Source: Fibrobacterota bacterium
GTDB taxonomy: Bacteria > Fibrobacterota > Fibrobacteria > UBA11236
DNA length: 64,000 nucleotides
Reading direction: 5' to 3'
NCBI GenBank assembly: GCA_043753995.1
Contig: JAYUVP010000249.1
Location: 32,001-96,000 of the forward strand
The position numbers were made by a program, and so were the translations under genes. How positions within the stretch are numbered: position 1 is the first letter of the stretch; every line of letters starts with the position of its first letter. A model generated the notes under the pieces. That model saw only the letters and a program-made list of their open reading frames with translations. It had not been told where the DNA came from and did no database searches. This document shows positions 7,338 to 38,229 of the stretch, one piece after another.

Positions 7338-7395
7338 GAGAGACCGGATTCTTTCGCGGAGGGGAAGGGTTCTGGTGGGGATTTTCTTTCCCCTT

Positions 7396-10710: not shown

Positions 10711-11010
10711 AATACCCTCAAATACGGGAGGTTAAAACTAGCTCTTCTTGGGGTTGAGACCCTTCTTTTTGAGGGAAAACCCTCATAGTGGAGGGGGCGA
10801 GACCGCGTATGGCCAAGGCGGCCCCGCCCCTCGCTGCGGCCTGGATTTCCCTGCTGGGCATGTCGGCCTCCGCGACCCCACCCATTGGAATATTGAAGTC
10901 AGAAGGGATAACCTAATGGCTCCGGTATCCTCGTCCCATCGGTTACCCAAGCCTATCGACCCAAGTCTAAACCTAGCGCCTGCGCGATAGGCAGGAGTTA
11001 AAGGCTGAAA

Positions 11011-18520: not shown

Positions 18521-19441
18521 CTAATGGGTTGAAGCTGGCGTCGAAGTGCGTCCCGCTTGGGCTCGCTTCAATTGTCGCAGCATATAGTGCAAGGATTCCG
18601 AGGAATAGCCGTGCAGCAGCAATCGGAAACCTGCGCGTAAAGTGGAAAGCGGCAACATGGGGTGGCGATTGTTCACTCGCCACAAACGCGAATCGTCGTC
18701 TAGCAAAGTCGAGACATATATTCCAATTGTTTCGTCGAGTTGCAGGGAATTCGAAGCCCGCCAAAAGTCATTGTCGGAAAGTAGGAACTGGAAAATCGGA
18801 GTATAAATCTCGATGGCGGTTTCGACGTCCATGAAATTATGCCAGGAGTCGGGCAATTCTTCGAATTCGAAAGGCCCGTCGGTAATGGCTTGCAAGTTTA
18901 TCGTCGTGACGGCATGCAAAACCTTGCCTTCTTTCTGCAAGGTTTGATTCAGGCGAATGATGAAATTGAAGAGATTGATATCATGAAACAGGAAAAGGTG
19001 GTCTTTCACATCGGCCAGTCGCTTGGGCTTGAGTGGGTTGAGTGGAATATCGACCCCGCTATTGTCTCGAATGAATTCGAGAATTTCGGAACCAATGTGG
19101 AAATGCCTCATGATCAGCAAATTCGCTTCGCGGCTGGCAAAATACCGGAGTCCCAAATAAATGAGGTGATGCAAAAGCCGTGACGACTTGAAAGCAGAAG
19201 GAAAGGGTGTTTTCAGCACCATAATTAGGCAAATCAAGGTGCGCATGATGGGCCGGAGCAGGGGCAAAAGGAATTGCCGAGTCTTGGATTGCAGCCCAAA
19301 CAGCAAGGCGCCCTTCACTTCGGGATCTATGGGCGTAGAATTGTCGAGAAACAAAGCTTGGGTAGGCAGCGGATCTTCCGGATCATGCTTCAGCCCGTTG
19401 AAATAACTTTGATACCGGGTATGGCGCGTATTTTCAGTCAT
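18521..19441 (-). CDS. Conserved hypothetical protein, last gene of the lipid cluster (recalled as DUF6999-like, unverified)
   Basis: 306 aa, TAATG-coupled to the KAS III fusion. His/acidic motifs RHFHIGSE, FHD, LQLDE and LHG..SE.LH. Confidence 0.7.
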   Translation of the reverse strand: MTENTRHTRYQSYFNGLKHDPEDPLPTQALFLDNSTPIDPEVKGALLFGLQSKTRQFLLPLLRPIMRTLICLIMVLKTPFPSAFKSSRLLHHLIYLGLRYFASREANLLIMRHFHIGSEILEFIRDNSGVDIPLNPLKPKRLADVKDHLFLFHDINLFNFIIRLNQTLQKEGKVLHAVTTINLQAITDGPFEFEELPDSWHNFMDVETAIEIYTPIFQFLLSDNDFWRASNSLQLDETIGIYVSTLLDDDSRLWRVNNRHPMLPLSTLRAGFRLLLHGYSSESLHYMLRQLKRAQAGRTSTPASTH

Positions 19442-21318
19442 TAGTAATTGCCTATTTCTTCGAGTTGCAACCGGTAGAGGCGTGCCGTGGTTTTGGCTGC
19501 TTTTACGATTTCATCGGCAAGCATTGGGGTCAAGGGTAAAAGTTTCATCGCCGTATGCATTTCTTCGAGGTGATGCTCGTCATTGTGACCGTGATAGAGA
19601 AGAAAGGACACCGCATCGGAACTCAGTTGAAGGGCCCTTTGGATTTTCTCGCCCCAAGCCTTGGCCAGGTTTTTTCCAAGTCCTTCGATGATAAAAACCG
19701 AGCCTAGCATGTGAAAAGGATTTTCCCTTCCGGCCTGGTGAAACATATAAGCGGAAAAGGCCTCGGATCCAATATTCTTGGGATGGGAAAGTATGTCCCC
19801 GCGTTCGCCCCCGGAGGCGACATAGTTGGCTTCGAGCATGCGGAAATCGCGGTGCTCATCCCAGGAATGCTTGAGATAGAGAGAGCGCAATTCAAAATGC
19901 TCCGTGGTGATATTCGAGGCCGCTTTGGAAATCCAGCGACTGCCCTCCATGACTTGCTGGCGCAGGTTGAGAAGCAATTCCCTGTAGTCGGATCGGGTTA
20001 AGTTTCCGGTCTCGATTTTGTGGATGAGGGATAACTTGCTTAGTCCCAATTCGAAATCCGACCACACCAGGAAGAGGCGACGGAAAAGGGAGGCCAGTAA
20101 ATCCTCGCCCGGCTGAAGCGGGATGTCGCTCGGAGTGGCGGATATTTCTTGTTGCGCCGGTAACAATGATTTTTTTTCCGTTGGCGATTCGCCGACTACG
20201 GTCAATAGCATAAAACTGGTGATAAAGCGACCGCTCTCGGGGACTTGGCAAAGGATTTTCTGCCCGGATTGAAGCCGTCCCGATTGCCATAGTTCTTCGA
20301 GCATGATCAACAGGGAGGCCGCGCCTGTATTGCCCTTGTGATATAGGTTGGTGAACCACTTATGCGCAGGAATGTCGGCCAGGCATTTCTGCAATAGGTC
20401 GACGATTTGATCCTTGAAGACATGCGAGGAATAGTGACAAAGAAACCAGTCGAAATCGGGTTTGAGCTTGCCCTCTTCGATAAGCGAGAGATAATGCGAC
20501 ACACCCAAGGGGACGATTTTGTCGAGCATGGCGAGATCTTGTCTTAGGGTAAACAGACCTTGCCGAACGGCGTCACCATAATTCGCCATTTCTCCCGTGG
20601 TAACCCGTATGCTTCCGTCTTCGGATTTTTCACCGCCGGCATACATGCAAACATCCAGGCTATCGGCATGTGATTTCAAGTCTATCCACTCGATACGGAG
20701 GGATAGGCCACTTTCCTTGGGCCGGTCTTGCAGAAGCGCGGCGCCCGCACCATCCGACAACATCCAGCGTAAAAATTCGGTGTCGAGCGGTATGCGCTTC
20801 TCATTCTGAAAGCTGTCTAGTTCTTCGAGTATCGGGGCCCGGAATTGACGGCTGGGAAATTCGCTGCCGCAAACCATGCCGGTCTTGTGCTTGCCGCAGG
20901 CAATGGCGTGATAGGCCCCTTGAAGCGCGGACATGACGCTCGCGCAAACACCTTGAAAAGAGGCGACATCGCAGCAGGCGATCTTGGCTTCGCCTTGCAC
21001 CATGCTCGAAAAGCCGGGTACGAAGAGATCGCCTTGGGTGGTGGCGGTGGCCAAATAGTCAATACCCTTGGCGTCGATGGAGGAGTCTTTGAGGGCGGCG
21101 TGAATGGCGAGGGAAGCCATTTGCGCATTGCGATGTGTGGGTTTGCCATTTTCGTCGAGAGCATAATGGCGGGTTTCGATGCGATTGAGTTTGAGCACTC
21201 GCTTTTTCGCGATCGATGGCTTTCCTCCCACGAGTCCGAGTCGCTTCTCGGCGGCTTCGGAGTCTAGCGCGGGTCCAGGAAGAAAGGCTCCGAGCGAAGT
21301 GATATAAACGGGTCGCAT
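19441..21318 (-). CDS. StlD/DarB-like beta-ketoacyl synthase III fused to a C-terminal heme-oxygenase-like (iron-containing redox) domain
   Basis: Catalytic C/H/N in GVCAS, CHYSS and KGNTGAAS, plus VPESGRF. After a linker (near 20100), a helical domain with KHSWDEH, IIEGLG and HGHNDEHH. Confidence 0.85.
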   Translation of the reverse strand: MRPVYITSLGAFLPGPALDSEAAEKRLGLVGGKPSIAKKRVLKLNRIETRHYALDENGKPTHRNAQMASLAIHAALKDSSIDAKGIDYLATATTQGDLFVPGFSSMVQGEAKIACCDVASFQGVCASVMSALQGAYHAIACGKHKTGMVCGSEFPSRQFRAPILEELDSFQNEKRIPLDTEFLRWMLSDGAGAALLQDRPKESGLSLRIEWIDLKSHADSLDVCMYAGGEKSEDGSIRVTTGEMANYGDAVRQGLFTLRQDLAMLDKIVPLGVSHYLSLIEEGKLKPDFDWFLCHYSSHVFKDQIVDLLQKCLADIPAHKWFTNLYHKGNTGAASLLIMLEELWQSGRLQSGQKILCQVPESGRFITSFMLLTVVGESPTEKKSLLPAQQEISATPSDIPLQPGEDLLASLFRRLFLVWSDFELGLSKLSLIHKIETGNLTRSDYRELLLNLRQQVMEGSRWISKAASNITTEHFELRSLYLKHSWDEHRDFRMLEANYVASGGERGDILSHPKNIGSEAFSAYMFHQAGRENPFHMLGSVFIIEGLGKNLAKAWGEKIQRALQLSSDAVSFLLYHGHNDEHHLEEMHTAMKLLPLTPMLADEIVKAAKTTARLYRLQLEEIGNY

Positions 21319-21332
21319 GAATGTCCTGAGGT

Positions 21333-22265
21333 TTAGACGGGCGAAGGGGAATGGGCAGGTGCAGGAGCTTGCAAGGAATCGGATCGGCGAAAATCGAAAG
21401 TTCGATAGCGGCGAACGAAATGCTGTAAGACGAAAATTTTCAAGAAGTAAAAGGCGAGACTAGGCTCATTCAATTGGGGATGGATCCAATGACGTAGGCG
21501 ATCGTGTTCCTTAGGCCATTGCGACCAATGCATGTTGATATTGCGGTGATGGACAAGATGATAACCGTGATTAAAGGTGATGCGGTTCAGCCAAACGCCG
21601 ACGAAATTTCGGCTGGAATCATAGGGGTGATGGGGGGCTGTGTGATGATGTTGAAAATAGCCGGTGCCTACCATGGCCAAAACGCCGAAGGCTTGCGGCA
21701 AGAGTAGGGCATAGGCGGTGGTCTTCGCGTCGATTCGCCAGAGATAAAGGGTCAAGGTAAGCCAAGCGGCGATTTGCAGCGACCAAAAAAGGCCGAGCCG
21801 AAATCCCGAGGTGTTCCGAGGTTTCGCCATCAAGGAAAGCCAATAAAGGAAGCTTGCCCGAAAGTAAACCCTGACTCCATGCGCGAGATAACGAAAGAAC
21901 TGCAAAAAATTATTGTGATGGGAATAACGGTAGGTGTAAGTGTAATCGTCGCTGCTGTTGGCATAACGGTGGTGATTGGCATTGTGCGTCGCTTTCCAGG
22001 CATAGCAGCCATCAAAGCGGTAGAGGGTGAAGAGGAATTCGATGGCGCGATTGGCCAACCTGGAGCGGAAAAAGGGCCAATGGCCGTGACAATGCTGAAT
22101 GCAGCCGACCACATAGGTGATTAAAGCGGTGAGCACCGAAAGCCACAGGCGCGGCCCTATCAGGAAGTGCCAAGTCACGAGTAGCGGATAAACAGCCAAG
22201 ACGCCAAGGCAGCGAAGGTCTTGTTTGTTTCTAAGGCCTAGAACGGAAGAAGACGCCTGCGGCAT
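21333..22265 (-). CDS. Membrane-bound fatty acid desaturase
   Basis: His boxes HCHGH, HNANHH, QHHH and HGYHLVHH, with TM segments. Confidence 0.88.
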   Translation of the reverse strand: MPQASSSVLGLRNKQDLRCLGVLAVYPLLVTWHFLIGPRLWLSVLTALITYVVGCIQHCHGHWPFFRSRLANRAIEFLFTLYRFDGCYAWKATHNANHHRYANSSDDYTYTYRYSHHNNFLQFFRYLAHGVRVYFRASFLYWLSLMAKPRNTSGFRLGLFWSLQIAAWLTLTLYLWRIDAKTTAYALLLPQAFGVLAMVGTGYFQHHHTAPHHPYDSSRNFVGVWLNRITFNHGYHLVHHRNINMHWSQWPKEHDRLRHWIHPQLNEPSLAFYFLKIFVLQHFVRRYRTFDFRRSDSLQAPAPAHSPSPV

Positions 22266-22268
22266 GAC

Positions 22269-23033
22269 TTATTCCGCCGGGCTATGCGCGCGACGACGGT
22301 AGCCCGAGGCCAGCCAGCGGTCAAGCCAGGGCGTCCAGAAGCCGAAATTGCGTGTCGCCTTGCGGTGGTGGGTGCCATGGCGCCAATTGTTTTCCAGAAA
22401 ACTCGCGCCTTGAGTGTGGGTTGGCCAGGAGAAATTGGCATGCCCGAAAGTATTGGCAGTCATGCTGATAGCCGGCCAAAGCATGATGGCGAGGATGTCG
22501 AAGTCATGCACAAGCATGATGAGAATCATGGTTCCGCTATAGAGTAAGGCCTCGAACCAGTGAAAGCTAAGGCTACTGAAAGGCGTAGTGGTCACGCTGT
22601 AATGATGCACGGAATGCACACGACGAAAAAGGAAAGGTCTATGCAATAACCAATGGCAGGAAAAGAAATAAAGCTCATTCCAAGCGGCGAAGAGAAGCAA
22701 GTCGCCGAGTGCGCGTACTAGGGAAAAGTCTTTCCATAAAATGGTGAGCATTCCATGCTCTTCCAATTTGAGCGCTAAAACCGCGAAGAAACTGAGAAAA
22801 AGCATGGCACTCATGGACTTCCGAATTTCATGGCCTATTTGACCCGCCTTGATTGGGCGGTTGTCGATATAAAATCCCAGTTTCCGTTTGATCAGAACGT
22901 CACGAATGAAAAGGAAAGATATGGCGGACAAGGAAAAATAAGCCACCAAAAAACCCGCAATATGCCAGGCATAGTATTCGGGCCAACTCAGACTATGCGA
23001 CAGCGTTTGCAGGGCGCCGAAGTCGAGCATCAC
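22269..23033 (-). CDS. Sterol desaturase / fatty acid hydroxylase family protein
   Basis: His boxes HWLLH, HSVHH and HGTHH; TPFS..SFHWFEA; NFG. Alternative ATG at 23030. Confidence 0.9.
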   Translation of the reverse strand: MMLDFGALQTLSHSLSWPEYYAWHIAGFLVAYFSLSAISFLFIRDVLIKRKLGFYIDNRPIKAGQIGHEIRKSMSAMLFLSFFAVLALKLEEHGMLTILWKDFSLVRALGDLLLFAAWNELYFFSCHWLLHRPFLFRRVHSVHHYSVTTTPFSSLSFHWFEALLYSGTMILIMLVHDFDILAIMLWPAISMTANTFGHANFSWPTHTQGASFLENNWRHGTHHRKATRNFGFWTPWLDRWLASGYRRRAHSPAE

Positions 23034-23800
23034 GATTTCTCCAAGGGCTCGTCATAATTGAAGCGGGCCGAACGCGTCCGGAAAGTTTCGTCGAACCAGG
23101 GAAAGGCAAAACCGTAATTGCCCTTGATATGGGTGTGATGCAAGGTGTGTCGACGGCAAGAAGAGAAAAGATGATTCAAGGCGAGCTTGGGAAAAACGGC
23201 ATAATTCATATGGCCGATATTGTTCATGAAAAGACTCAAAGCCGGGAAGAGAATGATGGCTCCCATGCTCAGAGGCGCGAAGGCCATATAGGTCACCATG
23301 ACGCTGCTCAGCAAGACGGCTTCGAACCAGTGAAAGCTATAGGTCGAAAAGGGAGTGGGCACAACCGAAAGATGGTGATGCCGATGCACATGTCGGTAAA
23401 ACCAGGGTAGGTGCAAGAGATAATGCGAGGCATAGAAATGAACTTCATTCCATAAGGTGAGCAGAATGAGATCGAGGACTAGACGCCAGGGTGAATGAAT
23501 CCAATCGATGTGAATCAGGCCCAGCCGCTGCAAGCCCAAGGTCAATCCACCATAAGCGCCGAAGACGAGAATGGAGATTAAGGAAAGTCTCACTTCACGC
23601 GTGATTTGCCGGGGTGGAATGGGGCGTGAATCGATGACGCGGCCAATTTTGAAAGTCGGAAGGACTTTTTGGGTGAGCTGAAGCGTGATAAAAGCCAGGG
23701 CGAAGTAAATGAAAGCAAAACCGAGTGCAACTAAGGCGGCAATTTGCCAGAGCCTAAGTTCGAACATGAAATCGCGTAGTCCGATTTGCAAGGCCGTCAT
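23030..23800 (-). CDS. Sterol desaturase / fatty acid hydroxylase family protein (paralog of the neighbour)
   Basis: HYLLH, HRHHH and HTLHH; TPFSTYSFHWFEA; NYG. Confidence 0.9.
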   Translation of the reverse strand: MTALQIGLRDFMFELRLWQIAALVALGFAFIYFALAFITLQLTQKVLPTFKIGRVIDSRPIPPRQITREVRLSLISILVFGAYGGLTLGLQRLGLIHIDWIHSPWRLVLDLILLTLWNEVHFYASHYLLHLPWFYRHVHRHHHLSVVPTPFSTYSFHWFEAVLLSSVMVTYMAFAPLSMGAIILFPALSLFMNNIGHMNYAVFPKLALNHLFSSCRRHTLHHTHIKGNYGFAFPWFDETFRTRSARFNYDEPLEKS

Positions 23801-24039
23801 GCTGCGCTTTCTAGGCGAAGTATCACATCGCCAATGGTGGCGGCGGCCATCAATTCTTCCAAAGGGATTTCAGCCAGGCCGCTTTGATGCAGTTCATACT
23901 CCAATTCGAGAGCGCTTAAAGAGTCGAGCCCTAAATCCTTTTTCAAGGACATATCATGGCTCAGGGATTCGACTGGGCGATGGGAGACTCGGCTGATGGC
24001 TTGCATCACCTTGATTTCAATAGCAGGCATACGGGTCAA
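23797..24039 (-). CDS. Acyl carrier protein
   Basis: DLGLDSL phosphopantetheine motif, about 80 aa, acidic. Alternative ATG at 24030. Confidence 0.92.
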   Translation of the reverse strand: MTRMPAIEIKVMQAISRVSHRPVESLSHDMSLKKDLGLDSLSALELEYELHQSGLAEIPLEELMAAATIGDVILRLESAA

Positions 24040-25244
24040 TCTTGATGACGCGAAAAAAGGAGGGAAACATTATTCGAGCCGAAACCGAAAGAATTCTTGA
24101 GGATGTTTCGCAATGGCGCATGTTGATTCGCCGATTCAGTCGCTGTCATACCTTCCTGAAGGTGAAAGGCTTGCGGCAATTGCTGCTTCATCAAGGCTTG
24201 GACGCATAGAATGGATTCGAGGATACCACAAGCCCCAAGACTATGTCCGATTTGGTTTTTTGGAGCCACCACGAGCTTGCCGCCGAGTTCCTTGCCAAAT
24301 ACCGAATGCATGCCGAGATATTCGACTTCATCATTCTTCAGGGTACCGGTGCCATGCGCGCAAATGGCATCGATATCTTTGGCCTCTATTCCGGCGCAAG
24401 CTAAGGCTTTGTGCATGACGGCAATAATATCGCTCGCATCGGGCTTCGGTGCGACTGGATGATATGCACCTGAATTCTGTGCCACGCCGGAAAGCTTTGC
24501 CAAGATCGGTGCGCCACGCCTGCGCGCCGACTCTGGTGATTCAAGTATAAGGAAGCCAGCTCCCTCGGCGAGTATAAAGCCGTCGCGCTCCGGGTGAAAG
24601 GAGCGTCCCGGCTGCAGGGGATCGCGTTGGGCGCTGAGCACTTTCAATTGCTTATAAGCATGATAATTGAAGGGTGAAAGCGGGGCTTCTGCGCCGCCCA
24701 CCAAAGCGATGTCCCATTGCCCAGTAGCGATTTTCCAAAAGCCTTCAGCAAGGGCATTTGCGCTTGAGGAGCAGGCCGTAGAGATGCAGAGGTTCGGACC
24801 GGTAATGCCGGTTTGTTGGGCTATCCATGACCCCAGGGCACTGGGCATCACCTTGGGGACGGTGAAGGGATGTATCGCGCGCATGCCTTCTTGCAAGGCT
24901 TTGGCGATCATTTCTTCATGAAAGTCCAGACCACCGAGACCACTGCCCAGGCAAATGCCGATGCGATAGTCGGAAGTGTCGCCGGACAAGCCCGCTTGAT
25001 CCAAAGCCTCGCGGGCAGCGATGATACCTAAGTGTACGCAGCGAGCAGAGCGAGCGAGAATTTCGGGTGGTAGTCGCTTGGCGACATCGATATGGACCTT
25101 GCCAACCAAAACCGGATCGATAGCAAAACCGTCCTGAAATGAGAATTGGGCTTTGCCGGAAGACATTTCATCCCAAAAAGCATCTACTCCGCAGGCGCGG
25201 CCGACGAGCGCACCCAAGCCGGTGATGACAGGAAAGGTTACCAT
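24036..25244 (-). CDS. Beta-ketoacyl-ACP synthase II (FabF-like, cluster-dedicated)
   Basis: STACSSS, AHGTGT, IGHSLGA and NSFGFG. GAGGGG RBS precedes ATG 25244. Confidence 0.92.
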   Translation of the reverse strand: MVTFPVITGLGALVGRACGVDAFWDEMSSGKAQFSFQDGFAIDPVLVGKVHIDVAKRLPPEILARSARCVHLGIIAAREALDQAGLSGDTSDYRIGICLGSGLGGLDFHEEMIAKALQEGMRAIHPFTVPKVMPSALGSWIAQQTGITGPNLCISTACSSSANALAEGFWKIATGQWDIALVGGAEAPLSPFNYHAYKQLKVLSAQRDPLQPGRSFHPERDGFILAEGAGFLILESPESARRRGAPILAKLSGVAQNSGAYHPVAPKPDASDIIAVMHKALACAGIEAKDIDAICAHGTGTLKNDEVEYLGMHSVFGKELGGKLVVAPKNQIGHSLGACGILESILCVQALMKQQLPQAFHLQEGMTATESANQHAPLRNILKNSFGFGSNNVSLLFSRHQD

Positions 25245-25259
25245 CAACAACCCCTCAAA

Positions 25260-25841
25260 TCATTGCTCTTGCTCGGGCATATCGAATAAAAAACCGATCT
25301 GAAAAAACATCTCTAAGTTGGCTGACGCCCCACGCCTAACAAACGAGTTATTGTTCGATCCCATGGGAATAAAAATCTCGATAGCATTTCCGGCGGCCAT
25401 CTTAAAGTGACCCGCCTGAAAATGGAATTTGCCCCCTGGTGCAATGAGGGCGTCCTCGGATTTGAAGGAACCATAGTAGTCGCGCTCACGATAATACCGA
25501 TATCCGAATTCGATTTCAGGAGTAAAGCCCCAGCGGTAGCCCTGCCAAACGCTATAGCCAAAATAGATGGACGGGCTAAGGTATTTGCTTGTCTTCGACT
25601 GGGTCTGAATTTGAATCAAATTGATAATTCCCGGCTTTAAACCGAATTCAAAGCGATCCACATGTCTTTCCAAAAAAAGTTCGATGGGAAAAATGCCAAC
25701 CGTGCCTCCGCTATAGCTACGGTCAACCTGGGATTCTCCAGCGGAGGACAAAATGAAACCGACTTGATTATCATAGGCGCTTGCTCCAGAGTGAAACAAG
25801 GGCAAGGTGCTGAGCAGGAATAAAAACCGCGGTAGGAACAT
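25260..25841 (-). CDS. Secreted hypothetical protein, possible small outer-membrane beta-barrel
   Basis: Signal peptide (..GASA-Y), alternating aromatic/glycine beta strands and a near-terminal FQIGFLF. Confidence 0.55.
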   Translation of the reverse strand: MFLPRFLFLLSTLPLFHSGASAYDNQVGFILSSAGESQVDRSYSGGTVGIFPIELFLERHVDRFEFGLKPGIINLIQIQTQSKTSKYLSPSIYFGYSVWQGYRWGFTPEIEFGYRYYRERDYYGSFKSEDALIAPGGKFHFQAGHFKMAAGNAIEIFIPMGSNNNSFVRRGASANLEMFFQIGFLFDMPEQEQ

Positions 25842-25866
25842 GGGGTGCAAAGTAATATTCCCAATC

Positions 25867-26166
25867 ATGAGCCAGCCTTCGTCATCCCATGATTCTTGTC
25901 GCCAAAAGCCGGGTCTTTTCAAACCCATTGTCAATCATTCGCGCTGTGAAGGCAAAAGCGATTGCGTGGTGGTCTGTCCGGTGAATGTTTTCGAAGTGCG
26001 CCGCATCGAAGATTCTGATTTCGCGGCACTAGGCATACTGGCCAAGGTCAAAGTCATGGTCCATGGCAGAAAAACGGCCTATACGCCCCGCGCCGAGGCT
26101 TGCGAAGCCTGCGGCCTATGCGTCACGGCTTGTCCGGAAAAGGCGATTCGCCTGATGAAGGTTTAA
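25867..26166 (+). CDS. Ferredoxin (dicluster, probably 3Fe-4S plus 4Fe-4S)
   Basis: CEGKSDCVVVCP and CEACGLCVTACP. Confidence 0.9.
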   Translation: MSQPSSSHDSCRQKPGLFKPIVNHSRCEGKSDCVVVCPVNVFEVRRIEDSDFAALGILAKVKVMVHGRKTAYTPRAEACEACGLCVTACPEKAIRLMKV

Positions 26167-26172: not shown

Positions 26173-29100
26173 TTAATTCGGCGGGGTTCCCCATTTGAAC
26201 CAGGCATTCAAGGTGGCCAGTTCGGTGGGAGTGAGTTGCACACCCGAAGCGGGCATATATCCTGCGGATAGGAATGGACGATTGATGCGATCGTAAACCT
26301 TGCTTCGCGTCAAGGAGTCGGCGACAGTCGTGGAATCGCAAACCGCGGTGGCGTTCACCTTCCCGGGCCCGTGGCATGTCAGGCAGTAGGTGTTTAGAAC
26401 GGTGGAAACGCCGGAGTTAAAAGGCGGCAAAACCGTATTGCGAGCCAAGGCATGAATAGGCCCGTCCGTGGCGGTGGCCGTGATGGTTGTCGTGCCGGTG
26501 ATCATTTTCAAGACTTGAACTTGGGTGGAGCTCACCACTTTCAAAACCGCAGGATTGCTGCTGGTCAAGGCATAGGTCTTGAGCGTGGTGGAATCTGGCG
26601 CGAAAACCGCTGTGCTTTGCACCGTCGTTCCCACCACGAGCCGTGGCAGGGTTAGGGCGATTCCCGTAGCCACCACATTCCCCACGGTTACATTGAAATT
26701 CGCTGTTTTCGCCCCGTCGGTCGAAGTCACGCGCCATACCGAATTCCCCGCCGCTGTTCCCGATAATTGAGTTGTTCCTACCAGAGTGGCACCTGTACCT
26801 GACACCAAGGAAAGGGTATAGCCCTTATTTGTCGCCGATGACGGCGTCCAGGATAAAGTTGGCGCCTTGGTACTGCCAACAAAAAGGCTGAGGTTAGCCG
26901 CGCTCACGCTCTGCACCGGGACCGGGCCCACGACCACGGTGAAGGTGTCCTTGACCGTGGGATTTTGCACCGAAGTCGCGACAATCTTCACCGAGCCCAA
27001 TGCGGATGCCGTCACCTTGCCTCCGGGCAAAACCGTGACGCCCAAGCCCAAGGAGGTGAGGGTATAGCTCTTACTCGTCGCCTCCTCAGGAAAGGCGCCT
27101 ACCTGTGGAATCACGGTGTCGCCGACTTGAAAGGAAGTGTCTGCTCCGACCAAGCTGTCGACGGGCCACGGAATCACGGTCACTTTAAAGGACTTGGATT
27201 TCGCTCCTTCTTCGGTGGTCAATCCGACATTGGCCGATCCCACGTAGGCGCCATGAATTCGAATACCCGTGGGCGTGGTCACTGTGGTATCGAAGGAAAC
27301 CAAGCTATAGCCCTTATTGCTCGCATCCCCCGGCGCAAAAGTCACCTTGGGGAATTTCGTGTCGCCAAGCCTCACCGTGTCTTCCGCCACCGTCACGTTT
27401 TGCAAGGGGACGAAATGGGCATTGAGCCAGCCCAGTAAAATGCCCAGCTGGCTGGGAGTCAAGTCGCCTTCAGCCGGCATGCGATCCTTGTCGGTTTTCG
27501 CGAGTTGCAAGCGCCGTAGCGATTCCGCGCCCTTGATCAAGAAAACGCTGGAGTCTTGCAAGTTGAAAGTAATGGTGGGGCTATGGCATTTGCCGCATTT
27601 CTCGGTGGTGATGGGCTTAACATGCGCGTCGAATTGCGGCGTCACGGCCATAGCGGTGAAGGTGGCCGTCTTGTCTCCATCTTCGGCGCGCACCGTGATT
27701 TTTGCCGAGCCCAATACCCCGGCCACCAGGCGATTGCCGACCGGTTTGATGGCGGCGCTATTGTCGCTTTCCAAGGTGTAATTCTTATTGGTGGCGTCAT
27801 TCGGTAAGAAGACCACTCTGGGCGTGATGGTGTCGCCGAGGGCGATGGCGGTGTCCTTGGCAGAGAGGCTAAGCACCGTTTTCACATTGCGGCCCAACCA
27901 GAGCAGCATCAAATCGAGATCGCGCTTGTCCATGGTGGTGTCGGCAGGCATATGCGCCGTGTTTCCGAAAGGCAAGGACAATCGCGCGAGGGCCTTGCTT
28001 CCACGGCCGACGAGTACAGCCGAGTCCTGCAGATTGAAGGTAATGGTGGGGCTATGGCATTTGCCACACCACTTCTTGGAAATGGGTTGTATATCGGCAA
28101 AGGTTGGGCCTCGTACGGTCACCGTAAAGGTGTCCTTTGCTCCGCCGGCAGTTGCGGTAACCGTCACCTGCGCCGAGCCTTCGGCGCGCAAGGCGAGGCG
28201 CTTGCCGACGACACGGACTCGGGTGGTATCATCGCTTGCTATTTCAAATTCGCGCTCGGTGGCATTGGAAGGCATGAAGACGATGTTCGGTGTAAGGGTG
28301 TCATAAAGCAAACCCGTGGTGTCCACCGCGTCCAGCGCAGTCGGGGCGATGCTCTTGTCGCTAATCGAGAATGAGAAGGTGGCCTTGGCGCTGCCACGGT
28401 TGGCCTGCACCGTCACCTGGGTGCTACCTGCGGCGAGAGCGACGAGGCGAAGCCCGCTCAGCACCTTGGCCTTGGTGGTGTCCGCTACGATCAATTGCAC
28501 GCCCTTGTCGGTGGCGCCGTCAGGCTCCAAGGTCGGCGTGACTGTCACGGTATCACCGGTTTTGGCGCCGAGATTCGATACCGAGATGGAGCTAAGCAAG
28601 ATCACCTTTTCGGTGATGGTCACTGAGAAAGACATACGGGCCGTGTCGCGATGGGCTCGCACTTCGATAGTGACCTTGCCCGTATCACGGCATAGCACGG
28701 CATGGCCGCGCGTTCCCGCGCGCAAGGTGTCGACGGCATGCAGGCTGTATTCCTTGTCGGCGGCGGTGTCGGGACGCACGGTCACCCGGGCATTCACCGT
28801 GTCTCCCGCCTGGCAGTCCAGATCTTCGGCTGTCAGTCGCGTGCGCGCCCTGTCTACCTGCGCCAAGCTGTCTTGATGCGCGACACTATCGGCGAGGATG
28901 ACGCTGTCCTTGCGGGCCTTGACGTCCACCACGGCGCTGTCGCGCTTCTGTCCTTTTTCGGCATAGTCGAAGCGCTTTTCAAAGGCCACGGCATTGTCTT
29001 TCAGCCCCGTGATGACGGCCGAAAAATTGGGCGACACGTTTTCGGGCAAATCGAATTGCACCGTGCTCTGGCCCGGCTTCAAAACAAAGGTTTTGCTGAA

Positions 29101-29280
29101 CAGGGTTTTGCCCGTGTCGAGTCCCTTAGGATAAAGCGAAACCTTCACGCTGTCGAATTTCCCCACCAGAGTGGAATCGAGCTGGAATTGCAATTCGGTT
29201 TTTTCCTTGGGATTGCTCAGGCAGGAAAATAGCCCGAGCAAGACAAAGCCGAGAAGCGAAAGGGAAAGCAGGGTTTTCAT
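26173..29280 (-). CDS. Lipoprotein with about 8 Ig-like (Big_2-type) repeats and three c-type cytochrome domains
   Basis: Lipobox LFS-C. Repeats with P..AT.K..L...G...VTV. CGKCH (28054-28068), CGKCH (27583-27597) and CLTCH (26371-26385), each followed by an MP motif. Confidence 0.85.
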   Translation of the reverse strand: MKTLLSLSLLGFVLLGLFSCLSNPKEKTELQFQLDSTLVGKFDSVKVSLYPKGLDTGKTLFSKTFVLKPGQSTVQFDLPENVSPNFSAVITGLKDNAVAFEKRFDYAEKGQKRDSAVVDVKARKDSVILADSVAHQDSLAQVDRARTRLTAEDLDCQAGDTVNARVTVRPDTAADKEYSLHAVDTLRAGTRGHAVLCRDTGKVTIEVRAHRDTARMSFSVTITEKVILLSSISVSNLGAKTGDTVTVTPTLEPDGATDKGVQLIVADTTKAKVLSGLRLVALAAGSTQVTVQANRGSAKATFSFSISDKSIAPTALDAVDTTGLLYDTLTPNIVFMPSNATEREFEIASDDTTRVRVVGKRLALRAEGSAQVTVTATAGGAKDTFTVTVRGPTFADIQPISKKWCGKCHSPTITFNLQDSAVLVGRGSKALARLSLPFGNTAHMPADTTMDKRDLDLMLLWLGRNVKTVLSLSAKDTAIALGDTITPRVVFLPNDATNKNYTLESDNSAAIKPVGNRLVAGVLGSAKITVRAEDGDKTATFTAMAVTPQFDAHVKPITTEKCGKCHSPTITFNLQDSSVFLIKGAESLRRLQLAKTDKDRMPAEGDLTPSQLGILLGWLNAHFVPLQNVTVAEDTVRLGDTKFPKVTFAPGDASNKGYSLVSFDTTVTTPTGIRIHGAYVGSANVGLTTEEGAKSKSFKVTVIPWPVDSLVGADTSFQVGDTVIPQVGAFPEEATSKSYTLTSLGLGVTVLPGGKVTASALGSVKIVATSVQNPTVKDTFTVVVGPVPVQSVSAANLSLFVGSTKAPTLSWTPSSATNKGYTLSLVSGTGATLVGTTQLSGTAAGNSVWRVTSTDGAKTANFNVTVGNVVATGIALTLPRLVVGTTVQSTAVFAPDSTTLKTYALTSSNPAVLKVVSSTQVQVLKMITGTTTITATATDGPIHALARNTVLPPFNSGVSTVLNTYCLTCHGPGKVNATAVCDSTTVADSLTRSKVYDRINRPFLSAGYMPASGVQLTPTELATLNAWFKWGTPPN
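27551..28068 (-). repeat. Intragenic duplicated heme-domain segment (CGKCHSPTITFNLQDS twice)
   Basis: Near-identical nucleotide stretches at 27551-27597 and 28022-28068. Confidence 0.85.
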
Positions 29281-30101
29281 TATTTCACCTTGGTCACGAC
29301 GGTCGTCGTTTGCGTGCCGGGATCGCTCATGAGCATAATGGTGGTGATGCCGACTAGAGTCACCGCAGCTGCACCTCCCGCCACCCACAGCCAGGTTTTA
29401 TTGCCTTTGCCGTCGCCGGAGGTCGCAGCGGCGTTACCCCCCGCCTGAGATGCCGGATCCGAGGTCTTGGCACCTGCCGACCCAATAACCGCATTAGCTC
29501 CCGTGTCAGGCCTCACCTCGATGAGATTACGCCCGGTCGAGTCAATGGGATAGCCGAAAGTCTTCAAGTTCTTGCGTACGCGCTCGCGCTCGGCCACGCT
29601 ATCGCTGTCGCTGGCGGTGCGATCATAACGCTTGCGCACCTCACGAAACATGTCCAGAATGGCATCACCCACTTCGAGGTCTTCCAAATCTTGGCGCGGA
29701 TCGAGCTTAAGCATTTGATACAGAAAAGATTCTGCCTTGCGACGCGTTCCCATGTCGGCGCCATACACCACACCGAGGTATTTATAGATGAAAATGCTGT
29801 CTTCCTTGTCGCGAATGCGGCGATCGCGGCGCATGTTTTCCAAAAGGGCGATGAGTTGATCGAAGTCGCCGCCATGATAAAGCTCTTCCACCGTTTTTTT
29901 ATCGAGCACGGCTGATTTTTTCAACTTGGTCGCCGAGGTTTTCGCGGGCGACGCAGCGGGGGTGGCCTTGGTCGTGTTCGTTGAGTTCGCGGTCGTAGTT
30001 GCGGGCGTGGCTTTTTCGGGTTGCGGCGTTGCCGACCATGAAGTCATGACCCCAAAAACCGTAAGCGCGAGAAACCCGGCCAAGGTGCTGAAAAACCTCA
30101 T
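29280..30101 (-). CDS. Secreted TPR-like protein with C-terminal membrane anchor (paralog of 32951-33619)
   Basis: Signal peptide, Thr/Ala/Pro linker, Y..GDF...DSIF..YLGVVY..D.GTR helical domain and WLWVAGGAAAV TM. TAATG-coupled to the downstream lipoprotein. Confidence 0.75.
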   Translation of the reverse strand: MRFFSTLAGFLALTVFGVMTSWSATPQPEKATPATTTANSTNTTKATPAASPAKTSATKLKKSAVLDKKTVEELYHGGDFDQLIALLENMRRDRRIRDKEDSIFIYKYLGVVYGADMGTRRKAESFLYQMLKLDPRQDLEDLEVGDAILDMFREVRKRYDRTASDSDSVAERERVRKNLKTFGYPIDSTGRNLIEVRPDTGANAVIGSAGAKTSDPASQAGGNAAATSGDGKGNKTWLWVAGGAAAVTLVGITTIMLMSDPGTQTTTVVTKVK

Positions 30102-32950: not shown

Positions 32951-33619
32951 ATGTCTAGTCCTATTTCCCCCGTTTCTGTCCTGCTCTTTGCCCTTGGCTT
33001 GCCCGTATTCGGTGCAGCTCCCCAGCCATCCTCGGCGACGACTTCGGCACCGATGGCGAAAACCACCTCGTCCCCGAGTGTCTTAGATACCGCGGTGATT
33101 CATGGCGCCTATGCCGACGGCGATTTCGAAAAGGTGACGAGTTCGCTAGAGCCCATACTCGCCGCGAAAACCGTTTTGCCCAAGGCCGACAGCATTTTTC
33201 TTTTTCGCCACCTGGGCGTGATTTATGCCAAAGACCCAGGCACGCGCGAAAAGGGGAAATACTGCTTTCGCAAATTGCTCGATGTCGATCCGCAAGCGCA
33301 AATTCTCGATCTCTATGCCACCGATGAGATCTATCAGGTCTTTCGCACCGTCCAGGCCGAATGGGACTTGTCTCATCCCAATGCCCAAAATCAAGCCGCC
33401 TCCTCCTCCAATCGCGTCTCCGCCGCTCCTGCTCCAGTCATGGAGCCCGCCGCTCCCCCTGCGGCCAAGCCCGCGAAGACGCAATCCTGGAAACGCTATG
33501 CCGCCGTGGGCGGAGCCGTTGCTGTCACCGCCGGGTTAACCACCTGGTATTTGCTTTCTTCCCAAAAAGCCGACAACAAAACCGTGACTGTGGAAGTCGA
33601 TCCCGCCCAGCCGAAATGA
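32951..33619 (+). CDS. Secreted TPR-like protein with C-terminal membrane anchor (paralog of 29280-30101)
   Basis: Signal peptide; VLD...Y.DGDF...DSIF..HLGVIY..DPGTR...LL..DP; C-terminal TM AVGGAVAVTAG. Confidence 0.75.
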   Translation: MSSPISPVSVLLFALGLPVFGAAPQPSSATTSAPMAKTTSSPSVLDTAVIHGAYADGDFEKVTSSLEPILAAKTVLPKADSIFLFRHLGVIYAKDPGTREKGKYCFRKLLDVDPQAQILDLYATDEIYQVFRTVQAEWDLSHPNAQNQAASSSNRVSAAPAPVMEPAAPPAAKPAKTQSWKRYAAVGGAVAVTAGLTTWYLLSSQKADNKTVTVEVDPAQPK

Positions 33620-36600
33620 ATAACATGAAAAAACTCTGTTTGCCCCAGTTTTTACGCCGCGCTGGCCTGCTCACGGGCATGGCTTTCGGTTTTGCCTTGC
33701 TGGCTTCTTTCGCCTTATTGCCCACCGCCTGCACCAGCACCGAGGGTGGCACTGATTTCGAAATTGCCTATGTCGATCGAGATAATCTCACGTCTTTCGA
33801 CTCCATTGTCGTGCTTCTCAATAAGGAGGGCTCCGAAAAGCCGGACACCCTTTTCAAGGGCAAGCTCACCGACAGCACGGTCTTGCGTCACTTGAAAGTT
33901 CCTGGTAACTTGCAAGGTACGGTGACTATTTCCGTGCAGGGCTTCAATCATGGCGAACTCGCCTTGGAACGCCATACCACGGTCGACGCGGACAAGCAAA
34001 CCGTCGCCGGCACCGATTTGAAGCACAGCTCCCAAGGTCGCATTCGCTTCGCCGAACCTTCCCTGAAAATGAAAATCGGCGATACCGCTGCCATTCCAGC
34101 ATTGGATATCGAGCCCTCCGAATGGAAAGACAAGGAAGTCACCTTCAGCTTTCAGGAAATCAAGGTGCTCGCTCTCATCGCCAAGAACAAGCTCGTGGGT
34201 TTAGCCCGCGGATCGGCGCGCGTGGTGGCCACCCTCGTCGGCGATAGCACCGTCACCGACACCCTTTTCGTGCAAGTCGTTGATCCCGAGGCCGATAAAA
34301 TCACCGTCCGCGTCTCGCCTGACACCTTGCGTCTCACCGCATTGGGCGCCTCGCTTTCCCTCAATGCCGAAACAACGCCTCTCTACTCGCCTCTCACCTG
34401 GAGTAGCGCCGATGATACTGTGGCCACCGTCGATGCCAATGGCTTGGTGCGTGGTTTGAAGGTCGGCAAGACTTGGGTTCGTGCCCGTTCTACTACCGAC
34501 AGCTCCGGCGCGGACTCGTCTTGGGTCGTCGTATCGGGAGCCGTGCCAGTGGAAAGTGTCCGTTTCGCCCGCTCCACCCTCAGCTTATTCGAGGGCGGCG
34601 CGGCCGACAGCGTCAGCGTTCAAGTGCTCCCGACCGACGCCAATCCCGCGACTGGCCTGCGTCTCATCGGCAAGGCCGTGACGCTCAATGGCCGCCGCTT
34701 CATTCCCGTCGATACGGGATCCGCCATCGCCATCGCTTATTCCCTGGTGGACACGACCAAGACCGACACCTTGCGCATCAGCGTGAAGCAAGCCTTGACC
34801 ATTCAATCCTTCCGGATTAAGCCGGACACCTTGCGTCTCTATCTCGGCGGGCCGGATAGCGCTTTCTCCATAGTTGTCGATCCTGCCTCGGCGGGCCTGG
34901 ACGCGGTATGGCATTTGGCCAAGCTTGGCATTGCCAGAGTTTCCGATTCTGGCTTGGTGAAAGCCATTGGCGAAGGCCAGGTTTTAGTCTTGGCCCAAGC
35001 CCTCGCCGACAGTAGCAAGCGCGATACCTCCCTGATTCAAGTCGTGCGCGATATGCCCAAGCTCTCCGTGGGCAATGCCGTGGTGGCCAGCCCGGAATCC
35101 ACGATCGATTTCGTGCCCAAGGTCGAGCAAGAATTCGGCGGGGTGACTCGGTTCTGGTGGGATCTCGATGGCAATGGCACTTGGGACGACAGCAGCGATG
35201 GCCTTAAAAACCTGAGCCGCAAATATGACGCCGTTGGCGAAACCACGACGCATTTCAAGGTGCGCGATGCCGAAGGCAATGAGGGAATGGCCGATCGCAA
35301 GGTGACCATTACCAAGGGGCCCCATGTAGTCATCCTGGTTCCTCCGGACGGCTTTGTCACCAATAAGAAAACCGTCGAGGTGAATTGGGAAGTCGACCAT
35401 GTCAAGCAAGACAAGCAAACTCAAGAGCAATTGACCCAAGAGGGCCCCAAGACTTTGGTGCGCTCCGCCAAGGATGCCAATGGCAATGAAACCGTCATTT
35501 CCATCACGGTATTTCTTGATACCAAGGCGCCCGAGCGACCCCTGGTGAGTTCGGTGTCGCCCACCAATAGCAAAACGCCGAACTTCAGCTGGCGCAGCGG
35601 CGGCGGAAAAGGTGCCGGACTCTATCGGTATCAAATCGACGCTGAACCCGGCGCGAACCAAAGCGAAACCGGCGACACCACCTTGACCTGGCCCGCCGAT
35701 TTGAATGCGGGCAGCCACACCTTGTTTGTACAGGAGCGCGACACAGCGGGCAATTGGTCGGCTAGCGGCAGCGCCAAGGTCATCATCGACTTGACCGCCC
35801 CGCCAGCGCCGACGGTAAGTGCCGTCAGCGGCCCGAATAGCACGAATCTCCAGGTGACCTTTGTCTGGAAAGGCGCCGAGGAAGGTGCCCTGCGCTATCG
35901 CTATCAAATCGATAAGGAAAAATTCGAAGGCGGTGCCGTCGAGGTAGGGGACACCACGGTGACGGTGATCTTGACCGAGGGGCATCATGCCTTTTATTTG
36001 CAGCAGCTCGACAGCGCCGGCAATGCTTCGACGCCGGGCAAGGCTTCGGTGAATGTGGATGTGACGGCCCCCAATAAGCCTTCCCTGCGTTCGCTCACGG
36101 GCGTCTGGTCCACGAATGGCAAACCCACTTGGATTTGGAAAACGGGTGGCGGCGCCGGCAATGGCAAATTCCGCACTCGCCTCGACACCGCCGACTTGAG
36201 CGCTAAGAGCTTTTTCACGGATACGTCCTTCACCCCCGCAGCTGCCATCGGCGAAGGCCCGCATCGACTCTTCGTGCAAGAAATGGACAGCGTGGGCAAT
36301 GTCTCACCTGCCGAATCTCTCACCATCACCGTGGACACCCAGGGGCCTTCAGCTCCGATTTGCCTTGAGCCCGCCGACAATGCCTGGGTCAATACGCAAA
36401 AGCCGACCTGGAAATGGAAAGGCGGCGGGGGCGGTGACGGACGTTATTATGCCTTCATCGCGGCAGCTTATACTCCTGACACCTCGACCCGGGTCACTGA
36501 CACCACCCTTACTCCGCCGGCCAATCTCCCCGAAGGCCAAAAAATTCTCGGAGTGAAGGCCTATGATGCCGCAGGCAATGTCTCGCCCCTTACTACTTGC

Positions 36601-38229
36601 CGCGTTCGCATCGACGTGACGCCGCCCGGCACACCCGTGAGCGATACCAGCAATCACTTTTATGTCACTTCCGTGTTACCTACGCGGAAATGGTCCCGCG
36701 TTGGCGGCGGCTCGGGCATGTATCGCTTCAAGCCCGATGATTCCACCTTGACTTCCGGCGCTACTTCCTTGGTCGGCCCAGGAAGCTGGACGGCACCTGC
36801 ACCGCTTCCAGAAGGCAATCACTTCCTCGGCGTGCAAGAAATCGACAGCGCAGGCAATGTGTCGGCGCCGCTTTTCATGCCATTCAAAATCGACACCACG
36901 GCTCCTGCCGCACCGGTCATCACCCAAGTGCAACCCGGTCCGTCTATCGGTTGCCCAAGCACGGTCGCTACGATCTGGAGCTACACAGTTGCGGCGGATG
37001 CCAAAACCAATTATTACCAAATCGACTCGGCTGCCTTGCCCAGCCCGGTAGCTTCTCCGGTGAGCATCACCAGCTATCAAATACCGACAAGCCCGTGCAT
37101 TGCTGAAGGAGCACATTCCTTTAATATTCGCACGGTCGACAGTGCCGGTTTGCAGTCGCCCATAGCCTCTTCGACAACGCGCTTCATCACTAGGCAAGAA
37201 GCGACGGGGTTAACAGGAACGAGTGCCACCGGGCTGAATCTGGGTGTTTATAAGACGCTCTATTATTTGGGATACATCCGCAGTGGCGTAGTCAACGTGC
37301 TCACCGGAAAAGAAGTGGGCGAGATCCCGCTAAATTCAGGCACTTTGTCCACCCTTGTCAATCCGAATTATTTGCGCATGGCCGTAGGCCCCGGTGGAGA
37401 GCTCGGCATCCTCGACGGCATTCAAACCTCGGAAGGCACGGGCAAGGATTATGAATTGCATGTTCTCCTTCCCAGTGGAGAAAATATTACCGTGGGCCTG
37501 CCCCGATGGCTGACCCTTCCCACCTGGTTCGCTTTGGATTTCAATGCCAAGGGTGATTTGTTTTTAGCCTACAATGACCTCGATAATGAGGGGCGACTTT
37601 CGATTTGCATGGCAGTAAATCCCACAGGAGGAAAATCCACTTGCGTGGAACAGGTCCAGGGCATCAGTTCGCCCGGTGCCAAGCACATATTCATGACGGC
37701 GCGTCCCGCCGTTTTGGTCACCCTCGTGACTGCCGAGGGTTACCCTGAGGTTTATGGCCAGACCTCGGTGGAAGAAACAAAATCTTATCCCCAAGTCATC
37801 ACCGGATTGGAAAAAACCCCCATCAATCACTTCGGCTTGGGCGTGGTGAAAAGCACGGCTTCCATCATGAACTTCTCGCCCACTGGTAGTCCGTTTTTTC
37901 AGGCCATCACCTTTAGGAATCTCACCGGCTGGACCGCAGGCAAGGTGCAAAGCACACCCGCTGCATTGGGCTCGGGCATGGGCGTCATGGATGTGGATCC
38001 CAGCGGCCGACCCTATGTCGTCATGGGGGGCAAAATGTGGGGTTATTCGGGCGGCAACTGGTATTCGGTTTCCACCAATGGCCATGATTTCTCCGCCACA
38101 CCCATGCTGGATTTGAAAGTGCGCGACGACGGCACGCCGCTGCTTTTCTATTCCACGGGCAATGCGGGCAAGCTCAATACCAATCTCTTACGCACCGGCT
38201 TTGAATTGCCAGCCACCCAGGCGAGGTGA
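33616..38229 (+). CDS. Large surface lipoprotein/adhesin with Big_2, PKD-like and repeated Ig-like domains and a C-terminal beta-rich domain
   Basis: Lipobox PTA-C; TWSSAD..VATVD..G; WDLDGNG (PKD); repeated EG.H...V.E.DSAGN.S...DTTAP units. ATGA overlap with the upstream gene. Confidence 0.85.
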   Translation: MNNMKKLCLPQFLRRAGLLTGMAFGFALLASFALLPTACTSTEGGTDFEIAYVDRDNLTSFDSIVVLLNKEGSEKPDTLFKGKLTDSTVLRHLKVPGNLQGTVTISVQGFNHGELALERHTTVDADKQTVAGTDLKHSSQGRIRFAEPSLKMKIGDTAAIPALDIEPSEWKDKEVTFSFQEIKVLALIAKNKLVGLARGSARVVATLVGDSTVTDTLFVQVVDPEADKITVRVSPDTLRLTALGASLSLNAETTPLYSPLTWSSADDTVATVDANGLVRGLKVGKTWVRARSTTDSSGADSSWVVVSGAVPVESVRFARSTLSLFEGGAADSVSVQVLPTDANPATGLRLIGKAVTLNGRRFIPVDTGSAIAIAYSLVDTTKTDTLRISVKQALTIQSFRIKPDTLRLYLGGPDSAFSIVVDPASAGLDAVWHLAKLGIARVSDSGLVKAIGEGQVLVLAQALADSSKRDTSLIQVVRDMPKLSVGNAVVASPESTIDFVPKVEQEFGGVTRFWWDLDGNGTWDDSSDGLKNLSRKYDAVGETTTHFKVRDAEGNEGMADRKVTITKGPHVVILVPPDGFVTNKKTVEVNWEVDHVKQDKQTQEQLTQEGPKTLVRSAKDANGNETVISITVFLDTKAPERPLVSSVSPTNSKTPNFSWRSGGGKGAGLYRYQIDAEPGANQSETGDTTLTWPADLNAGSHTLFVQERDTAGNWSASGSAKVIIDLTAPPAPTVSAVSGPNSTNLQVTFVWKGAEEGALRYRYQIDKEKFEGGAVEVGDTTVTVILTEGHHAFYLQQLDSAGNASTPGKASVNVDVTAPNKPSLRSLTGVWSTNGKPTWIWKTGGGAGNGKFRTRLDTADLSAKSFFTDTSFTPAAAIGEGPHRLFVQEMDSVGNVSPAESLTITVDTQGPSAPICLEPADNAWVNTQKPTWKWKGGGGGDGRYYAFIAAAYTPDTSTRVTDTTLTPPANLPEGQKILGVKAYDAAGNVSPLTTCRVRIDVTPPGTPVSDTSNHFYVTSVLPTRKWSRVGGGSGMYRFKPDDSTLTSGATSLVGPGSWTAPAPLPEGNHFLGVQEIDSAGNVSAPLFMPFKIDTTAPAAPVITQVQPGPSIGCPSTVATIWSYTVAADAKTNYYQIDSAALPSPVASPVSITSYQIPTSPCIAEGAHSFNIRTVDSAGLQSPIASSTTRFITRQEATGLTGTSATGLNLGVYKTLYYLGYIRSGVVNVLTGKEVGEIPLNSGTLSTLVNPNYLRMAVGPGGELGILDGIQTSEGTGKDYELHVLLPSGENITVGLPRWLTLPTWFALDFNAKGDLFLAYNDLDNEGRLSICMAVNPTGGKSTCVEQVQGISSPGAKHIFMTARPAVLVTLVTAEGYPEVYGQTSVEETKSYPQVITGLEKTPINHFGLGVVKSTASIMNFSPTGSPFFQAITFRNLTGWTAGKVQSTPAALGSGMGVMDVDPSGRPYVVMGGKMWGYSGGNWYSVSTNGHDFSATPMLDLKVRDDGTPLLFYSTGNAGKLNTNLLRTGFELPATQAR

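Follow-up and report, generated by a model that had tools for sequence, protein, structure and literature searches.

A lipoprotein of uncultured Fibrobacteria that places three predicted monoheme cytochrome c domains in a stalk of immunoglobulin-like repeats

The 64,000-nucleotide stretch analysed here (hereafter the window; positions 32,001 to 96,000 of contig JAYUVP010000249.1, assembly GCA_043753995.1, from a Fibrobacterota bacterium) carries on its minus strand a gene for a large lipoprotein in which three c-type heme motifs are spaced by immunoglobulin-like (Ig) repeats. The frame at 26173–29280 translates to 1035 amino acids plus a stop. We favour the ATG at 29280 as its start over the GTG at 29388, where the listed open reading frame begins, because this ATG shares bases with the upstream gene's stop codon (TAATG). 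The gene, the domains of its product (P0001, whose residue numbers are used throughout) and the upstream gene are arranged as follows.

26173–29280 (−), gene for the 1035-residue Ig-spaced three-heme lipoprotein, from translation and full-length homologues at 32–54% identity
29221–29280 (−), signal peptide and lipobox with Cys20, from sequence; the Cys is invariant in 16/16 aligned full-length rows
28906–29220 (−), N-terminal non-heme domain, about residues 21–125, outside any Pfam family, with 40% mean identity across orthologues
28111–28845 (−), Ig repeats 1–3 of Big_2 fold, from Pfam, repeat comparison and a model of Ig3
27886–28110 (−), heme domain 1 with CGKCH (405–409) and Met444, from motif, alignment and model
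27643–27885 (−), Ig repeat 4, the sole spacer between hemes 1 and 2, from repeat comparison and model
27415–27642 (−), heme domain 2 with CGKCH (562–566) and Met601, 45% identical to heme domain 1
26431–27414 (−), Ig repeats 5–8, from repeat comparison
26176–26430 (−), terminal heme domain 3 with CLTCH (966–970) and Met1009, from Pfam, motif and alignment
29280–30101 (−), upstream gene of 273 amino acids with a signal peptide, a helical domain and a C-terminal hydrophobic helix; its stop overlaps the cytochrome ATG

An earlier note on this DNA had read the gene as a lipobox, an N-terminal domain and the series three Ig, heme, one Ig, heme, four Ig, heme, and translation, motifs and repeat comparison bear out every element. 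CXXCH motifs begin at residues 405, 562 and 966, three where about 0.001 would be expected from the composition of the protein. Each is followed by the Met-Pro motif that the note had pointed out, as HMPA (M444), RMPA (M601) and YMPA (M1009), 35–39 residues past the CXXCH His in all three domains. Eight mutually similar repeats of ~80 residues (20–37% identity) complete the order 3-H-1-H-4-H, and their proposed identity as Big_2 holds by a Pfam match above threshold (27.5 bits, cut-off 22.8) as well as by fold. Pfam also detects Cytochrome_CBB3 (36.9 bits, cut-off 27). No Pfam match covers the N-terminal domain, and the NCBIfam scan of the protein named no family. Neither collection matched a carbohydrate-binding module (CBM) or YceI, Pfam gave no dehydrogenase domain, and the N-terminal, Ig and heme domains together leave no part of the chain unassigned.

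The heme domains are small class I cytochromes c with predicted His/Met ligation, as the earlier note had proposed and as both the alignment and the predicted fold support. Across an alignment of 38 such domains Cys, Cys, His, Asp, Met and Pro are invariant, and Met-Pro follows CXXCH in all 38 and in 12/12 further domains; the domains were selected by CXXCH, so that Met-Pro and Asp alone are independent tests. The class I layout (N-terminal CXXCH, Met 35–47 residues on and ahead of the C-terminal helix) was found in 38/38. A model of a single heme domain (predicted local distance difference test, pLDDT, 95.2) contains helices at 3–14, 30–44 and 62–75. Its best fold matches are PccH (4RLR; Z 6.4, root-mean-square deviation (rmsd) 3.1, 77 aligned) and FoxE (Z 5.6), with weaker ones to PgcA domain 2 (8qjg; Z 3.5, rmsd 3.5, 62 aligned) and TtX183A (Z 3.3); these scores are middling (Z under 8) and carry no information on function. 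Foldseek with the heme domain returned nothing at E ≤ 0.001. A profile of the 38 domains searched against the PDB recovered CcoP (E 3.9e-6) and many cytochromes c6. PccH, cytochromes c6/c551 and CcoP are the closest solved matches by fold or profile, but they are soluble periplasmic or oxidase-bound carriers; within Pfam, the closest known families are Cytochrome_CBB3, PSCyt1 and Haem_bd.

The AlphaFold model of the Ig3-H1-Ig4-H2-Ig5 core, built on a 12-row alignment, reached a mean pLDDT of 91.3 and a predicted template modelling score (pTM) of 0.68, with no segment under pLDDT 50. Joints of only 3–5 residues connect the Ig strands to the heme-domain helices. The Ig3 model superposes on a Big_2 domain of 7quz (Z 12.7, rmsd 2.0, 84 aligned) and also matches LigA (Z 10.1) and intimin (Z 8.3). 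Tandem Big_2 repeats are shared with Leptospira LigA/LigB and with intimin, whose stalks are without inserted cofactor domains. The LigB chain is described as a kinked but rigid rod that falls 16% short of its fully extended length (PMC5749957).

A whole-chain search returned 47 proteins: the query, four full-length relatives at 32–54% identity, all four with three CXXCH motifs, and 42 that match through Ig repeats only. Several of the latter are named as Fibrobacteres proteins and are heme-free, with up to 13 Ig repeats. An atlas search with residues 391–625 reached a best score of 0.88, which counts as a lead at most, and among sequencing runs the sequence was listed for two DNA sets, which may be its source, and for no RNA set. 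Of 31 genomes in the same family, the heme profile located the three-heme lipoprotein in 13, or in 12 once the unpublished genome G021 is set aside (it was excluded from family, locus and partner counts); it did not find the protein in 22 genomes of two more distant families. The genome collection yielded eight loci, each of them under a title of uncultured Fibrobacteria or Fibrobacterota. Among the loci of 12 relatives, eight hold intact three-heme frames, one a two-heme frame, two are split and one is cut by a contig end. One split orthologue (L023, near 9181) has four hemes and breaks where ten T follow one another, a possible case of slippage, phase variation or assembly error; the other (L018) breaks near 8589–8715. 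Three matches to shorter homologues all lie on contigs under 5.5 kb.

Spacing varies along the stalk. Among orthologues the number of Ig repeats ahead of heme 1 ranges from one to five, and some carry nine to ten Ig domains in all; hemes 1 and 2 are always one Ig apart (157–170 residues, 14/14 proteins), and hemes 2 and 3 are four Ig apart in 12/14. Mean identity is 48, 47 and 34% for heme domains 1, 2 and 3 and 32–41% for the Ig repeats, so the first two heme domains are better conserved than any spacer and the third is not. In a domain tree, domain 3 forms a separate branch (13/14 rows), while within the subgroup of the window domains 1 and 2 pair together (support 96/99; 82 columns only). 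This pairing, together with a 47-base stretch that is 89% identical between heme units 1 and 2, indicates duplication or gene conversion of these two domains. The three-heme stalk protein is real, conserved across uncultured Fibrobacteria and uncharacterised.

The upstream gene is the sole neighbour common to loci beyond one genus. Searches of Pfam and the PDB matched nothing to its 273-residue product. Of the 12 relatives' loci, five have this gene and the other seven have a thiolase gene in its place, so it is not essential in cis. In the source genome (G000, 97% complete), its profile gives 28 matches, 17 of which precede frames of at least 700 amino acids, mostly with lipoboxes; of 13 such large proteins that were scanned, 12 contain Ig, PKD or cadherin-like domains, and one of these bears a LamG tip. 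Members of this family are 200–280 residues long and end in a C-terminal hydrophobic helix with a WxWxAGG-like start, and the window holds two copies, at 29280–30101 (−) and 32951–33619 (+). The second is followed by another giant lipoprotein-like gene (33361–38229, +) with Big_2, PKD-like and Big_13 repeats and a divergent tip. The family is possibly a dedicated export or anchoring helper. On the best reading, the cytochrome is one of this lineage's giant Ig-stalk lipoproteins, with heme domains inserted into the stalk.

On the other side of the cytochrome, a fatty-acid tailoring cluster (18521–25250, −) encodes FabF, an acyl carrier-like gene, three desaturase/hydroxylase-like genes, DUF6999 and a ketosynthase III fused to a heme-oxygenase-like iron enzyme. 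The product of a small gene without family (25260–25934, −) resembles a barrel of the outer membrane, and the gene for a 4Fe-4S dicluster ferredoxin (25807–26166, +) converges on the cytochrome gene. Neither of these two is listed among shared neighbours; the fatty-acid/desaturase cluster and the ferredoxin are likewise absent from that list and were treated as unrelated.

The earlier note had asked for heme-attachment genes of the ccm or ccs type. The source genome encodes a Ccs set (three CcsA-family and two ResB matches), CcmE was not found in it, and the CcsA family is present in 39/39 genomes searched. LolA is also present. In E. coli, lipoproteins without Asp at +2 are sorted to the outer membrane, a rule unvalidated in this phylum; Asp stands at +2 in 0 of 16 lipobox rows. 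Surface display is likely, given that the protein is one member of a large Ig-stalk lipoprotein class. Beyond the signal peptide it contains no clear transmembrane helix (one borderline window in Ig8). With no transmembrane or cytoplasmic output there is no path for a signal into the cell, and redox sensing, one of the roles suggested in the earlier note, is unsupported.

Our leading reading, which we hold tentatively and short of even confidence, is that of a stiff surface stalk in which each predicted His/Met heme is a separate one-electron site exchanging with outside partners and not with the next heme. The protein would be exported by Sec and lipidated at Cys20, and would acquire its hemes in the periplasm through the Ccs genes; motifs and genes are in place for these predicted reactions. 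It would then be transferred to the outer membrane and displayed outward, like the other giant Ig/PKD/cadherin-like lipoproteins of the genome. There the Ig rod would keep hemes 1 and 2 one domain apart and hold heme 3 four domains further, at the tip. Since a Big_2 domain is 3.5–4 nm long, hemes 1 and 2 would lie ~4 nm and hemes 2 and 3 ~14–16 nm apart in an extended chain (an estimate, not measured on the model). Fast electron tunnelling is described as needing less than 15 Å (PMC11520253), a limit that these estimated distances exceed, which favours independent sites exchanging in trans. Like MtrC and OmcS, the protein would carry several c-type hemes in one exported chain; unlike them, with mostly bis-His hemes described as packed at 5 Å or less (PMC11520253), it has a separate His/Met domain for every motif, with 157 and 404 residues between successive motifs, in agreement with the earlier note's view that the hemes are probably too far apart for a simple wire. 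Electrons would move by collision, with neighbouring stalks, with secreted diheme cytochromes, or with minerals, humics or plant material at the tip. The stalk would act not as a wire but as a redox-active buffer or brush in the contact zone.

Candidate partners were assessed by their distribution, with counts limited to published carriers; these are kin and hence non-independent, and no statistics were applied. AA10 lytic polysaccharide monooxygenases (LPMOs) occur in 3/13 carriers, in two family members without the three-heme protein and in 7/61 genomes overall. A Cyc2-like protein is found in 7/13 carriers versus 16/18 non-carriers, and its barrel in 28/61 genomes; the source-genome copy is assigned as putatively Cyc2-like from a sequence motif. 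The DUF5777 barrel occurs in 3/13 carriers. The barrel of a multiheme cluster, searched in 38 relatives, occurs in 3 of the 11 carriers tested and in two non-carriers of the family. MtrB was not found in the source genome. As obligate partners, AA10, the Cyc2-like protein, the DUF5777 barrel and the multiheme-cluster barrel were all rejected by their distribution among carriers, and a role dedicated to LPMOs, or to any single one of the tested conduits, is disfavoured; for the exchange with secreted enzymes raised in the earlier note, this speaks against a dedicated electron supply to LPMOs. Secreted SO2930-like diheme cytochromes are present in 13/13 carriers, with seven matches in the source genome and up to nine in relatives.

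Several loci of the source genome bear on its redox equipment in their own right. The window itself holds tandem secreted dihemes at 51453–53222 and 53390–54931 (+), which are SO2930-like (TIGR03806 at 147–154 bits, under the cut-off) and have short C-terminal sorting-like tails. Locus L034 (G000:C9, 3424–17349) encodes a probable beta-barrel, 9-, 4- and 6-heme cytochromes and a ResB/CcsA pair, together with a molybdopterin oxidoreductase with NrfD and 5-heme subunits; it is a candidate porin-cytochrome conduit, patchy among relatives (8/39 genomes). At L035 (G000:C77, 5829–14175), the Cyc2-like monoheme barrel adjoins a one-heme lipoprotein of the same domain family; several cytochromes are encoded there too, as is a fusion of cytochrome c with a protein resembling subunit I of cytochrome bd. 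Locus L055 (G000:C62, 5948–7689 in contig numbering) has two AA10 LPMO genes in tandem, whose C-terminal tails are short; the pair indicates oxidative polysaccharide attack in this Fibrobacteria lineage.

Several observations weigh against the stiff stalk of independent sites. Four carriers that are 95–98% complete (G002, G011, G013 and G017) yielded none of the three candidate conduits of the outer membrane with the queries used. The SO2930-like dihemes also occur in 11 of the 18 non-carriers of the family, so their link to the stalk protein is unspecific and confounded with genome size. No redox gene stands among the conserved neighbours of the three-heme locus. The constant spacing of hemes 1 and 2 could mean that the pair interacts. 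Finally, the five-domain model, at its pTM of 0.68, is compatible with bending, and the heme domains may act as hinge points.

Among rival explanations, a periplasm-facing relay or electron store survives best, and we consider it unlikely; here the hemes would trade electrons with soluble cytochromes that act between the respiratory chain and the cytochromes of the outer membrane. The default orientation of lipoproteins is towards the periplasm, and the source genome has three heme-copper oxidase-family subunits, the Cyc2-like protein beside a one-heme lipoprotein, and the multiheme-barrel cluster. Against this, nine to ten Ig domains in some orthologues, or 13 in heme-free relatives, would be too long for a periplasm of 20–25 nm if extended, and the sister stalk proteins carry adhesin-type domains. 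The best fold match of the heme domain, PccH, is itself described as periplasmic (PMC13591261) and speaks for the relay.

Heme-to-heme transfer along a bending stalk, with a tip that reduces Fe(III)/Mn(IV) oxides and a porin-cytochrome feed, is the mode of action that a comparison with PgcA of Geobacter sulfurreducens, the nearest known system, brings to mind. PgcA is described as a lipoprotein whose lipobox and non-heme domain are followed by three monoheme domains with (PT)n linkers between them (PMC11520253, PMC10570954), of which domains I and II are duplicated and His/Met-ligated and domain III is bis-His and reduces ferric oxide (PMC11520253). According to the small-angle X-ray scattering reported there, the domains move freely, up to 180 Å apart (PMC11520253). 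It is the type of the 'microbial heme-tethered redox strings', a class whose homologues are described as linked by unstructured motifs (PMC10570954, PMC11520253). The two proteins share an outline: a lipobox and then a non-heme N-terminal domain, followed by three monoheme domains far apart in sequence, the first two duplicated and of His/Met type, the third divergent, with no packed heme chain. A weak fold match to PgcA domain 2 points the same way (Z 3.5 to 8qjg); Foldseek gave E 5.3 to 8qj6, and PgcA is absent among the best 60 of 85 PDB matches of the heme profile. The spacers of P0001 are folded Big_2 domains with short joints where PgcA has (PT)n linkers, and a Pro-Thr run is present in none of the 14 proteins compared; its terminal domain keeps Met-Pro where PgcA domain III is bis-His; and its host belongs to Fibrobacteria, not to a known metal reducer such as Geobacter. 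MtrB is missing from the search of the source genome, and the multiheme-cluster barrel has the scattered distribution given above. With the defining linker and bis-His tip both failing, P0001 is not a PgcA member and at most works like PgcA; folded spacers with 3–5-residue joints make tethered hand-over between hemes unlikely, and a PgcA-like shuttle is on balance quite improbable. The earlier note knew of no characterised protein with this architecture. For the beads-on-a-string concept this does not stand, since it is already known from PgcA with its flexible linkers; the rigid-spacer form is the new part, and we found no description of an Ig-spaced monoheme protein in the open-access literature.

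We give little credence to roles that involve no net electron transport, in which the hemes would serve as a sacrificial redox or nitric oxide/peroxide shield, or would give an adhesin binding surfaces that depend on redox state. The scaffold is adhesin-like, heme-free relatives are common and no cognate redox gene lies nearby; in addition, the genome looks aerobic and encodes LPMOs, enzymes described as able to make peroxide (PMC8981238). The invariant sixth-ligand Met argues the other way, as it marks electron carriers and not ligand-binding or catalytic hemes.

A dedicated electron donor to AA10 LPMOs in cellulose attack, comparable to the X183 domain of Cellvibrio japonicus Cbp2D, is more doubtful again and, in our estimate, highly improbable. 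Cbp2D and TERTU_2913 of Teredinibacter turnerae, both from polysaccharide degraders, are described as exported modular proteins with small class I c-type domains (PMC8981238, PMC10916295, PMC12542752), three X183 domains in the case of TERTU_2913. CjX183, of His/Met class I, is reported to activate LPMOs in vitro (PMC8981238); the genome has its two AA10 genes, and the heme domain matches TtX183A weakly. Unlike P0001, however, both proteins are described as secreted with CBM, YceI-like X158, X122 or X132 domains, and the linkers of TERTU_2913 as long and flexible; P0001 is lipid-anchored, has Ig spacers only and lacks any matched CBM, YceI or dehydrogenase domain. It is not tied to the presence of LPMOs, AA10 being rare among carriers and present without it in two family members, and the three TtX183 domains are reported not to have driven their LPMO (PMC10916295). 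That the motifs are relics binding no heme is barely credible: the gene is split in two relatives and another has lost a module, but Cys, His and Met persist at 25–55% domain identity, the spacers are less conserved than heme domains 1 and 2, and Ccs is present.

Heme domains set between folded spacers occur elsewhere as well. At E ≤ 0.001 the heme profile finds 9174 representatives; among 147 new proteins of the best 150 matches, 127 have at least three CXXCH and 34 have all CXXCH at least 150 residues apart. In 6 of 28 chosen, Pfam-scanned proteins this heme domain is paired with other beta-sandwich spacers: Fn3/Big_7 in P0063, with five hemes ~300 residues apart; ASH/HYDIN in P0087, with seven hemes 328 apart and Met-Pro seen in the first only; Fn3 in P0093, P0111 and P0121; and Big_1 in P0190, whose cluster is named Planctomycetota. 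Such a design has arisen more than once, in several separate instances, and this speaks for a function but also against the uniqueness of this gene. Two loci with the same heme domain were observed. At L032 of genome G034 (8036–12019, −) a five-heme Fn3/Ig-spaced protein precedes a DUF5777 barrel, and L038 of genome G043 (6851–11038, +) holds operons of a one- or two-heme lipoprotein, YceI and DUF5777. We put forward, as a more speculative proposal on the doubtful side, that these independently built stalks (Big_2, Fn3, Big_1, Big_7 and ASH/HYDIN; up to seven hemes) form a surface redox brush, in which electrons would be moved or stored by hopping between stalks and particles, without a packed wire or a known porin-cytochrome conduit.

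PgcA was described in 2023–2024 as the first of its class, with hemes nanometres apart that meet by tethered diffusion. The present protein has the same bead layout with folded spacers and therefore tests the need for flexibility; if flexibility proves unneeded, this would point to electron exchange in trans at the cell surface. Its heme domains are small, well predicted and open to direct expression and titration. The phylum is known mostly from fermentative gut species, and these findings place exported redox chemistry in uncultured Fibrobacteria. If true, a surface redox brush would be an undescribed form of extracellular electron handling in aerobic-looking, polysaccharide-degrading bacteria.

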